From IMG/VR virus record IMGVR_UViG_2703718799_000033: a stretch of 11,791 nucleotides of DNA. One strand, 5' to 3'. This DNA comes from a virus (lineage: Duplodnaviria > Heunggongvirae > Uroviricota > Caudoviricetes). Shown here piece after piece: positions 3,001 to 6,000 of the stretch. Made by a program: the position numbers. The first letter of the stretch is position 1. The number at the start of each line of letters is the position of its first letter.

Positions 3001-6000
3001 CACATACGACCCAGTACATAACCGGATGCCGCCACGGGAATCTTTCGGGACCACCAGGATATAAACTTTTTTCCTTGCTGTACCGGTGAAACTCCGTCAT
3101 CACATCGTCAATGGTGACGCCAAGAACCATCTTGCTGTCTTTGCACCACTTGATGAATTGCCCTGGCGACGGCCAGAACGGAGAATCACTGGCGCGGGCG
3201 TGGCGCATACCAGCAGAAACCTGTTCACGGGTTCGGATCCCCCCTTCGGCAAACGCAGCAATCCACTGCTGTTTTGCAGCAACTTCCTGCTCTGGCGTCT
3301 TCAGGTTGGTTACCACTGCCGCCGGAAACAGTTGTTTCAACTGTTTGAAAAGGGCATCAACAAGCCTCTCTGCTGACATGTTCACTACGTTGTCATTGTT
3401 GACGTACTGATGCTCATAACCTGACATGCGAGAAAGAGCTTCTCCGTCACGGTTTTGTATTGCGGTAAAAACGTTGTTCACAAGAAATCCTCCCATGCTT
3501 CAGGGCTGTTCCAGTGCGGAACGTTGTTATCAGGTAATGTTGATTGCTTCTGTCTGCTAATCTGCAGCCGCCTTGCCAGCTTCTGCTCCCACTGCGCCTG
3601 ATGGTATGCCTTACCCTCAGCCATCCAGTAAATTCTGAACTCTGCAAGTTCCTGTGCCGTTGGCAGACTGTCCAGGTAGATCCCCTGCAATGAGCTTTTC
3701 CGAAGAAAGTCATCTGATGGTTGCCATTGTTCATGCATGACAAATTTGCCTAATTGCCCTGGCCCACCAGGAGGAACAAAGTTATTCATCACGGCGTTGT
3801 TTGCGCCGGGGTCATGAGGCACAGAATCCCCGCTTTTTGTCCTGCTCTCCCTCTCTTGGTTAAATGACTGGTTATATGACTGGTTCTGGATCCCGTTTTT
3901 GGGATCATTCAACATCCCGTTTTTGGGATCATTCAACATCCCGTTTTTGGGTATATTCCCGTTTTCGGTAACATTACCGTTTTCGGGTTCATTACCCCCT
4001 TCCCGGTTGCCTTTAATGTTCCCGTTTTTGGTTATATTAAGAGAGAAAACCCGCACTCTTTTCGTCGCTCCCTTTCTCTCTCCGGTATCTGAAATAAGCC
4101 CCATTTTCATGAGCGATATAAGCCCGGCCTGCACGGTTTTTTTATTCAGGCAAGTGTCTTTAACGAGGCGTTCTATGCTGGGGTAGCAGAGGTTATATTC
4201 ATCGGCTCTGTCAGCCATCGAGAGCAGTATGAGCTTTAATGATGAGCTACCTGGATCTGTCTCCCAGGCCCAATCTGTTGCATGTCTGCTCATGATTAAT
4301 CTCCGCTATCAGCTTGAGTGTTGTGGGGAGGAATTAATCATGATCTGCTTAATCTCTGCCCTGATGCGACGGTTTGATTCCATGGTGCACTCAACACAGT
4401 GTCCGTTGTAAACCCAGCGTTCACTGTCATGTCCATGCTTACATGGTTTTCCGGTGTAGTAGCGTTTAAGTCCGCGCTTTGCGGCATCAATACGTGTAAT
4501 GATTTCCATGGTAAGCCCTGTTATTAGTATTGGGATTACGGTCATTTTGTGCTGACACAAAAAAAAGATCAACCAGATTTGGTTTTTTATTACCTTTGAG
4601 GTACGAATAGATATGAAAAGACCGCCGGGTGGCGGTCTACAGAGGGTTGTAGCTGGATATCATGAGTAGAAGAAGTATGCCAGTTCTGCTTTTGAGCGCA
4701 GCCATTGTCTTGTTTTACAGGCTTTAAAAAGCCCATTCATCAATACCTTACCTGGCATTTTGCGCTTACCTGTTAAGTGAGTCTGGATATAGTGACTCGT
4801 TGTTCCGGCTTCCTGTGCGAAGGCTTCACGCTCATCCGGAGTAAGTGCAAGCCAGTGCTTTTTGAAATCGAAATGTCCGTTATCGCTCATAGCTATTGCC
4901 TGATATTTATTTCAGATAATAAATATTCACCCATAAGGTAACAAAAATCAAGGATAGTTACCTATGAGGTGCATTTACCTGTTGGGTAATATTGCTTTAA
5001 ATTGAATCATCTACTGATTCATATATGAGGCGATTTTCCAGAAAATGAAAAGTATCCAGGACGTCCGCAGGCAAAATCTCAACGACTTGATCGACCGTGA
5101 ATTCAATGGTGTTCAGACGCGGATGGCAGAAAAACTTGGAACTCAGGCAAATCTGGTAAACCGCTGGGCTCTTGGCAAGAAGGTTATCGGCGACCAGGTT
5201 GCACGAAAAATTGAAGCTGCCGCCAATAAACCCCGTAACTGGCTTGATATTGATCGCTCGCTTTCTCAGGAGGGTTTTCAGCCTGTCGGCCCGAGCGATA
5301 TAGGTCAGCTGGCGGCTCACAACCTGGAACGCTGGATGAGCGAAAGCCGCGACCTTTCAACGCAGGGAAAACTACACCGCGCATCCGGCGTCGCCCAAGT
5401 GACAATCAGCCGCCTGTTAAACAATGAGGTCAGCGTTTCCATTTCCACCCTGGAGAATGTTGCATCCGCATTCGGGCGTCACGGCTATGAATTACTGATT
5501 CACCCGCACGACCCTGCGACCATCAACTATGATCGCTCGCGCTACGCATTGTTACCCGAAACCGAGAAAGCAAAGATCGAAAGTTACATTGAATTTGTCA
5601 TCAACCAGAACGAAAAAAACAAACAATAAAATCATATTTTTCAGTAAGTAAGCCGCCAGAAGGCGGCTTTTTTATTGCCTATTCGATTACCTAATGGGTA
5701 ATTTTTTTAACTCATATCTATTGACATCAAACCAGATACGCATAATTATTACCTCAACGATAACAGGCCGAGGCAACAAGTTATGCAGTGGAAAATCATC
5801 AACGGTTGGTACTGCGTTACTGCATGCGGATTCATGAGCTGGAAGTTCCGCACCTTACAGGAAGGTATTAAGTGGGCTTTCGTCAGCAAAGAAGCTCGCG
5901 ATGTGGCCAACGATAACGAGATATGGGAGGGCTGATAATGAACGTTAATCAGCAGAAAAATCTTCAAAAAATCATGCTGGCATTCGACAAGGACTACCGC

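Follow-up and report, generated by a model that had tools for sequence, protein, structure and literature searches.

The 11,791-nucleotide stretch of phage DNA in IMG/VR record IMGVR_UViG_2703718799_000033 (Caudoviricetes), referred to here at its full length as the window, carries a tandem array of dyad-symmetric repeats (iterons) inside the gene of its replication initiator. Comparison of sequences indicates that this array is very probably the theta-replication origin of the phage, which, like the origin of lambda (ori-lambda), lies between the parts of the gene that code for the two domains of the initiator. Origins embedded in an initiator gene are textbook knowledge for lambdoid phages (PMC5043065, PMC7466680). 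The reading draws its support from arrays in all 28 homologs sampled, a motif translated in multiple frames, covariation of the iteron arms with the protein, an adjoining lambda P homolog, a match to the annotated sites of phi80 and a chimeric initiator in phage GF-2. With phiV10-like temperate podophages of E. coli (Uetakevirus: EC.W1-9, phiv142-3, phiV10), the window shares 97-99% identity. The phiV10 record has no origin feature annotated in this stretch, the literature search found the iteron sequence in no paper, and the Uetakevirus papers that it returned do not discuss the origin. The origin appears to have been neither annotated nor described before.

The gene and the sites of the array, with the 16-mers given on the coding strand, are as follows:

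3478-4293, minus strand: gene of the replication initiator (271 aa), from open reading frame (ORF) and translation, with an N-terminal winged helix-turn-helix (winged-HTH), a repeat-encoded linker and a C-terminal DnaT-like domain
3890-4034, minus strand: iteron array, six 16-bp sites and one degenerate site, consensus ATCCC-AAAAAC-GGGAT
4019-4034, minus strand: iteron TAACCAAAAACGGGAA
3992-4007, minus strand: degenerate iteron unit, in register, filling the 45-nt gap
3974-3989, minus strand: iteron AACCCGAAAACGGTAA
3956-3971, minus strand: iteron TTACCGAAAACGGGAA
3938-3953, minus strand: iteron TACCCAAAAACGGGAT
3914-3929 and 3890-3905, minus strand: iteron ATCCCAAAAACGGGAT, two copies

A sequence-only reading of the window had described about six dyad-symmetric tandem iterons, and six sites with one degenerate unit are indeed present at 3890-4034, with start-to-start distances of 45, 18, 18, 24 and 24 nt. 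The two perfect 24-bp copies that it reported were recovered at 3890-3913 and 3914-3937, which are 100% identical in the direct-repeat scan, and Tandem Repeats Finder (TRF) gives period 24 with 2.6 copies and 100% matches at 3890-3951. A third 24-nt unit has 75% identity over 24 nt, a period-18 array with 3.1 copies (78%) is placed at 3941-3996 by the TRF and direct-repeat scans, and the repeat scans find a further copy at 4019-4042. The self-comparison of the region that had been proposed as a check thus yields, in the direct-repeat and TRF scans, periods of 24, 18 and 12 nt. Both identical copies are full 5-6-5 dyads, and 2-4 of the five arm pairs are retained in the other copies. When up to four mismatches are allowed, the consensus has 6 matches inside 145 nt and 3 elsewhere in the window, with a chance expectation of 0.9 per shuffled window on both strands; the array exists, far beyond chance, and the consensus scan detects no second iteron cluster in the window. 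With the HTH_36 domain (residues 18-67) on one side and the DnaT-like domain (residues 184-252) on the other, the array encodes a linker rich in N, G, P and K (...NGNIPKNGMLNDPKNGMLNDPKNGIQNQSYNQSFNQ...). Translation of 3478-4293 reproduces the repetitive Asn/Gly/Pro peptide quoted earlier, and the placement of the array inside an initiator ORF stands, with the amendment that the gene and the sense of the repeats are on the minus strand. An ORF at 3899-4186 on the plus strand and terminator-like patterns on the antisense strand were taken as by-products of the palindromic repeats.

The array is a DNA-level element that occupies the same in-gene position throughout the initiator family. The sample consisted of 28 full-length homologs, spanning Gammaproteobacteria, Desulfovibrio and Sphingobium: five phages (Edwardsiella GF-2, Vibrio H20, PPompW, Acinetobacter AP22 and Burkholderia Bcep176) and 23 prophage loci, which came from a scan of species-dereplicated genomes with a profile built from a 3-sequence alignment. 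Arrays were detected without a preset motif, by seeking the most repeated 12-mer in each initiator gene. They were found with 3-10 copies in 28 of 28 genes, beginning about 260-370 nt into the gene, just past the winged-HTH domain. The spacing, typically 17-18 nt for the early copies and 22-24 nt further on, is often not a multiple of three, so that about 20 of the 28 homologs translate one DNA motif in 2-3 frames of the same gene (2,1,0,2,0,1,2 in Bcep176; 1,0,2,2,1,0,2,1,2,1 in a Desulfovibrio prophage), and selection therefore acts on the DNA rather than on the peptide.

The 5-6-5 dyad with an A/T-rich centre is constant in the family, while both arms change together (ATCCC/GGGAT, GTCCC/GGGAC, CCCCC/GGGGG, GACCC/GGGTC, GTACC/GGTAC, GTCGG/CCGAC and GTGCC/GGCAC). 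The loci with GTCGG or GTGCC arms (L189, L190 and L192) encode proteins that are devoid of the otherwise invariant DTGE(R/K)xGxT wing and possess a different recognition helix. The iterons thus co-vary with the wing and recognition helix of the initiator N-domain, and N-domain and array travel as one module. Covariation of arm and wing is the signature expected of cognate protein-DNA sites bound by dimers. The combination of this module with a DnaT-like domain and a P loader is present in the window, L182 and PPompW; the P loader accompanies other C-domains in GF-2, L168-170 and L176, and many loci have neither. To judge from these combinations, the N-domain and array recombine with different C-domains and loaders at a classic lambdoid module boundary.

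The viral-contig relatives are all 99-100% identical to the window, so that they are uninformative on diversity and were used for copy number; the protein homologs listed, the best 120 of 868, are all near-identical E. coli variants. The iteron units number 5-9 in prophages (L008-L087) that are otherwise 99-100% identical, with gains or losses of whole 18- or 24-nt units, and the resulting initiators, among the proteins listed (P0001-P0120), measure 263-311 aa, in increments of 6 or 8 residues.

Each ATCCC-type iteron arm in the window gives rise to a GATC site, three of them within about 40 bp at 3888-3930. An N6-adenine methyltransferase gene is situated near the initiator in the relatives H20 and AP22. 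Since GATC is absent from the iterons of most family members, any link of the iterons to Dam/SeqA would be lineage-specific.

The closest known counterparts of the iterons belong to phi80 (L197, JX871397), in which the gp15-binding sites TTCCCGAAAACGGGAA, TTCCCGAAATCAGGAA and TTCCCGAAAACGGTA are annotated at 5664-5740. These sites agree with TTACCGAAAACGGGAA of the window at 15 of 16 positions and with a variant in the relative L013, which is exactly TTCCCGAAAACGGGAA, at 16 of 16. As in the window, the initiator gene contains them and a P-like gene comes next, and their sequence is essentially the same. phi80 differs in that its four sites have a 20-21-bp spacing and are read in another frame (FPKTG), in that a lambda-type right arm is present and the 12-mers described below have no more than a short GAACA duplication as their counterpart, and in that the N-domain of gp15 is of PF04492, without BLASTP similarity to this initiator. 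Near-identical iterons served by dissimilar initiators may point to remote homology with conserved DNA specificity, or to cross-recognition or incompatibility of the two replicon types.

The anatomy of the lambda origin was taken from PMC5043065 and the NC_001416 annotation. The annotated iterons of lambda, ATCCCTCAAAACGAGGGA, have spacings of 20, 24 and 23 and share the CCC-A-rich-GGG design with the window, and the comparison with known lambdoid iterons that the sequence-only reading had called for therefore gives both this common design and the near match to the gp15 sites. Lambda likewise has dyad-symmetric A-tract iterons in its initiator gene, at the junction of a DNA-binding N-domain and a partner-binding C-domain, a module boundary at ori, an origin downstream of a cro-position gene and terminator in the early operon, and, directly after the initiator, the gene of a P-family helicase loader. 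In the window this last gene is the following:

2696-3496, minus strand: gene of a helicase loader of the lambda P family, overlapping the stop of the initiator gene

Its product is identified by Pfam Phage_lambda_P (PF06992, E 1.7e-56) and PHROG 109 'P-like helicase loader', and is 30% identical to lambda P over 206 aa. The differences are that O belongs to Phage_rep_O, whereas this initiator is of HTH_36 and DnaT-like composition without pairwise similarity; that lambda possesses four 18-19-bp sites at 20-24 bp and the window six to seven 5-6-5 sites at 18/24 bp; that the 40-bp tract of lambda with >80% A+T is replaced by 12-mers of the GAAYC type and a purine-rich tract; and that the lambda right arm GAGAATTCTGGCGAATCC is absent from the window.

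A link to the lambda system is provided by GF-2. Residues 1-128 of its initiator (L003, 1501-2343) are 52% identical to the protein of the window, through the iteron linker and the first 12-mer, and residues 137-280 are 62% identical to the C-terminal half of lambda O; a P homolog then follows. The C-terminal half carries the lambda ori right-arm sequence GAGAATTCTGACGAATCCTC, GAAYC repeats lie between the last iteron and this shared right arm, and the iteron arrays of the window, GF-2, phi80 and lambda line up in a four-way DNA alignment. The GF-2 initiator reads as a natural chimera of this N-domain with its iterons and 12-mers and the C-half of lambda O. The N-domain/ori module would therefore serve in a lambda-type replication system as that of lambda does, and by this evidence the two are interchangeable in nature.

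Iteron number is known to vary among lambdoid origins, with four in lambda and six in Shiga toxin (Stx) phages (PMC7466680). The Stx phages 933W and P27 resemble the present phage in their six iterons, in expansion relative to lambda by unit duplication and in copy number that varies between relatives (PMC7466680); they differ in that their O proteins are true members of the lambda O family and the AT-rich tract is present. The origins of iteron plasmids (RK2 TrfA, F RepE, P1 RepA) are similar in that the repeat array adjoins tandem 12-13-mers (PMC5043065). However, plasmid iterons are direct repeats bound by monomers, helix-phased and outside the rep gene, and DnaA boxes, of which none were seen here, are usual. 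The sites in the window are dyads with 18/24-bp spacing inside a gene and do not belong to the iteron-plasmid class.

The two parts of the initiator on either side of the array are encoded as follows:

4030-4293, minus strand: N-terminal DNA-binding domain (residues 1-88), presumed reader of the iterons, from alignment with the 28 diverse homologs
3499-3753, minus strand: DnaT-like C-terminal domain (residues 181-265), presumed domain for interaction with a partner or single-stranded DNA (ssDNA)

Residues 18-67 match Pfam HTH_36 (E 1.8e-10), residues 184-252 match the Pfam DnaT DNA-binding domain (E 1.2e-15), and the best PHROG for the whole protein is PHROG 1032 'replication initiation protein' (E 1.3e-108). 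The N-domain shares with the homologs the motif DTGE(R/K)xGxT and the recognition-helix region. The C-domain matches the solved DnaT structures 9zbt, 6aep, 4ou6 and 2ru8 with E about 1e-19 to 1e-21 (phmmer). With the NCBIfam DnaT equivalog, however, the initiator scores 85 bits, over residues 181-264 only, far under the cut-off of 201 bits; it is accordingly read as a domain relative of DnaT, and orthology to DnaT is rejected. E. coli DnaT (primosomal protein I, replication restart) is homologous over only the C-terminal ~85 residues and has no counterpart of the N-terminal winged-HTH or of the embedded origin. Of 5426 complete E. coli genomes, 424 carry the gene; O26 and O157 lineages are among them, and several O26 strains have it at 100% identity. 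RefSeq genomes name it 'DnaT-like ssDNA-binding domain-containing protein', and in protein databases it goes by 'primosomal protein'. The latter is misleading, because a domain is all that is shared with DnaT, and such names hide what the comparisons identify as the gene of a phage replication initiator.

Two further features follow the array on the coding strand:

3857-3889, minus strand: GAAYC-type 12-mers, coding strand CAGAACCAGTCATATAACCAGTCATTTAACCA; TRF period 12, 2.4 copies, 94% (3857-3885)
3822-3856, minus strand: purine-rich tract after the 12-mers, 80% purine on the coding strand, 46% A+T

These 12-mers are the adjoining 12-bp direct repeats noticed from the sequence at the outset (TGGTTAAATGAC, 2.4 copies, 3857-3885), and phiV10 has three copies where the window has two. 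The family consensus directly after the last iteron is cA-GAAYC-W-R-T-C-A-n-T-R, present as 2-4 tandem units of 11-14 nt. Such units were found downstream of the last iteron in the window, L003, L004, L006, L007 and L168-L192, and GAAYC is 17.7-fold enriched in the 85 nt past the iterons compared with the rest of the loci. The commonest layout comprises three units spaced 13 and 12 nt and read in different frames (NQS, then EPV). The element is kept in loci in which the iterons differ (L185, L189, L190 and L192), and alignment with phi80 and lambda places it where their AT-rich unwinding region lies. A tract of 77-87% A+T occurs right after the GAAYC units in many relatives but is missing in this phage and its nearest relative L182. 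The DnaA-box and integration host factor (IHF) consensus were rejected as the identity of the 12-mers on comparison by eye.

The 12-mers are the best candidate for the opening site or for a second conserved contact. In iteron plasmids, opening starts at the 12-13-mers, which the initiator can contact as ssDNA (PMC5043065), and the 13-mers of the DNA unwinding element (DUE) of these plasmids offer the best analogy for the GAAYC repeats; oriC 13-mers and DnaA-trios are proposed as analogues along with the plasmid 13-mers. By such analogy, the GAAYC element could be a sequence-specific site for unwinding or ssDNA capture that replaces the AT-rich tract of lambda. It is a tentative suggestion, rather doubtful at present, that the 11-14-mers constitute a distinct, previously undescribed origin element which, with the two-part spacing of 17-18 and then 22-24 bp, defines a separate origin architecture.

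In the mechanism that we propose, dimers of the N-terminal winged-HTH domain would bind the dyad iterons (CCC, A/T-rich 6-mer, GGG), and the occupied, A-tract-bent array would form an O-some-like complex. This complex would destabilise the adjoining GAAYC 12-mers (3857-3889) and purine-rich tract, and the C-terminal DnaT-like domain would recruit the lambda-P-like loader with host DnaB. Early rightward-type transcription through the gene would express the proteins and probably also activate the origin. Iteron binding, bending, the unwinding site, loader recruitment and transcriptional activation are steps that we only infer. The origin would work like ori-lambda but lacks two characters of the lambda family, the O-family N-domain and the AT-rich tract.

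An array that binds the initiator could instead be mainly regulatory, acting in autoregulation, in copy-number control or handcuffing, or in exclusion of related phages, with the true origin elsewhere. The want of a strong AT-rich DUE adjoining the iterons would suit such a role, as would the finding that Stx phages bind efficiently only four of six iterons (PMC7466680) and, according to PMC4488673 and PMC3349717, the inhibition of related phages by ectopic copies of lambda ori. We nevertheless consider it improbable: position and sequence are equivalent to those of the iterons that form the origin in lambda and phi80, the conserved GAAYC element follows the array, together with the A+T tract of 77-87% in many relatives, and the window holds no other iteron cluster. 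A role of the repeats as RNA, in the form of early-mRNA hairpins that modulate translation, stability or termination, is still less probable. The mRNA strand of 3850-4050 does fold better than shuffles (z=-2.98), the arm changes are compensatory and would preserve RNA stems, and there are terminator-like patterns on the antisense strand between the iterons. The single hairpins, however, are marginal (0 to -3.2 kcal/mol, with copy 1 unfolded), only 2-3 of the five arm pairs are left in several copies, and conservation across the family is highest in the A-rich 'loop' and not in the stem. Arm identity follows the DNA-binding domain of the protein, the Rfam search gave no match, and the identical motif is annotated in phi80 as a protein-binding site.

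We give equally little credence to the idea that the repeats are a by-product of a slippage-prone, flexible linker rich in N, G, P and K, without function at the DNA level. All copies in the window are in one frame and code for PKNG-type repeats, copy number drifts in whole in-frame units, and among close relatives the cores are conserved no better than background, as such a linker would predict. These features contrast with a motif that about 20 of the 28 homologs translate in 2-3 frames of a single gene, and phi80 in yet another frame, with a dyad symmetry whose compensatory arm changes are not a coding property, and with GAAYC units in which the same DNA encodes different peptides (NQS vs EPV). 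On the evidence of frame and dyad, a pure linker explanation is excluded.

Several observations weigh against the identification of the array as the origin. A strongly A+T-rich tract of ~40 bp after the iterons was not found in the window; the 12-mer region has 61% A+T and reaches z=1.5 in a 30-bp stability scan, compared with z=3.4 for the lambda tract. The spacings of 18 and 24 bp are non-integral helical turns. Among 44 distinct near-identical 271-aa alleles, the iteron cores (5/72 variable positions) are not measurably more conserved than the rest of the gene (8/83 and 61/661), nor significantly more so than their flanks. The initiator matches only HTH_36 and DnaT and not Pfam Phage_rep_O (PF04492), which lambda O and phi80 gp15 both match, and BLASTP finds no significant similarity to either of these proteins. 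An AlphaFold2 model of the initiator, built from a shallow alignment of close homologs, has a mean pLDDT (predicted local distance difference test) of 33 and is unusable, and the literature search returned no experimental work on this phage or any member of the initiator family.

As for the kinship of the initiators, hhalign of 29 N-domains with lambda O and gp15 gives a probability of 47% and E 1.9e-4, with recognition helix and wing aligned, and PHROGs 678 and 345 are matched by the N-regions of both this initiator and a lambda O-type protein. Remote homology of the winged-HTH domains is thus plausible but unproven, these results being only suggestive. The sequence-only reading had spoken of an O-like initiator and a lambda-like origin. 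The former label appears valid by function and position only, the protein falling outside Phage_rep_O; of the latter, the intragenic array, the downstream P homolog and the conservation across homologs bear scrutiny, and the AT-rich tract is missing.

The gene order around the initiator mirrors the order pR-cro-tR1-cII-O-P of lambda (PMC5043065). Along the minus strand, a 76-aa ORF in the cro position is followed by a terminator-like hairpin, by an 87-aa ORF and then by the initiator, and at 5045-5629 there is a divergent HTH repressor gene. The hairpin is the following:

4619-4638, minus strand: intrinsic-terminator-like hairpin that separates the cro-position ORF from the replication genes, in the position of lambda tR1

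The phiV10 record also has a putative rho-independent terminator there. The hairpin is of interest as context for transcription across the origin. At the start of the initiator gene, a perfect 11-nt inverted repeat with CCUC/GGAG pairing (4290-4343, minus strand) can form an RNA hairpin that sequesters the Shine-Dalgarno sequence and AUG of the initiator. The predicted fold has -17.2 kcal/mol (z -3.4), a value that none of 200 shuffles equalled. As the stop codon of the upstream 87-aa ORF sits in the loop, the hairpin suggests translational coupling of this ORF and the initiator; it is not conserved in the more distant relatives L182 and GF-2. Elsewhere in the window, a PDDEXK (DUF3799) exonuclease and RecT are encoded by two distinct, overlapping ORFs (6234-7055 and 7052-7933, plus strand), and the corresponding place in the phiV10 record has one fused RecE-RecT protein. 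At 8633-9283 the phage encodes an adenine methyltransferase of the MT-A70 family, and a perfect 10-nt tandem repeat, GAAGATTACG, with 2.5 copies at 9416-9440, lies between methyltransferase and antirepressor-like genes.

The analysis locates a probable origin for a common prophage group whose records carry no origin feature. Lamassu defence has been found enriched at lambda iterons (PMC12663957), and since phage origins of this type are sensed by defence systems, locating them is of practical use. Two parts deserve follow-up: the GAAYC element, and the iterons that are identical to those of phi80 and are read by what appears to be a different family of initiators. The lambda design would extend to a broad initiator family outside the O family of Pfam, with N-domain/ori modules swapped in nature across the boundary of that family, and the conserved second repeat element could inform how origins open without an AT-rich tract.

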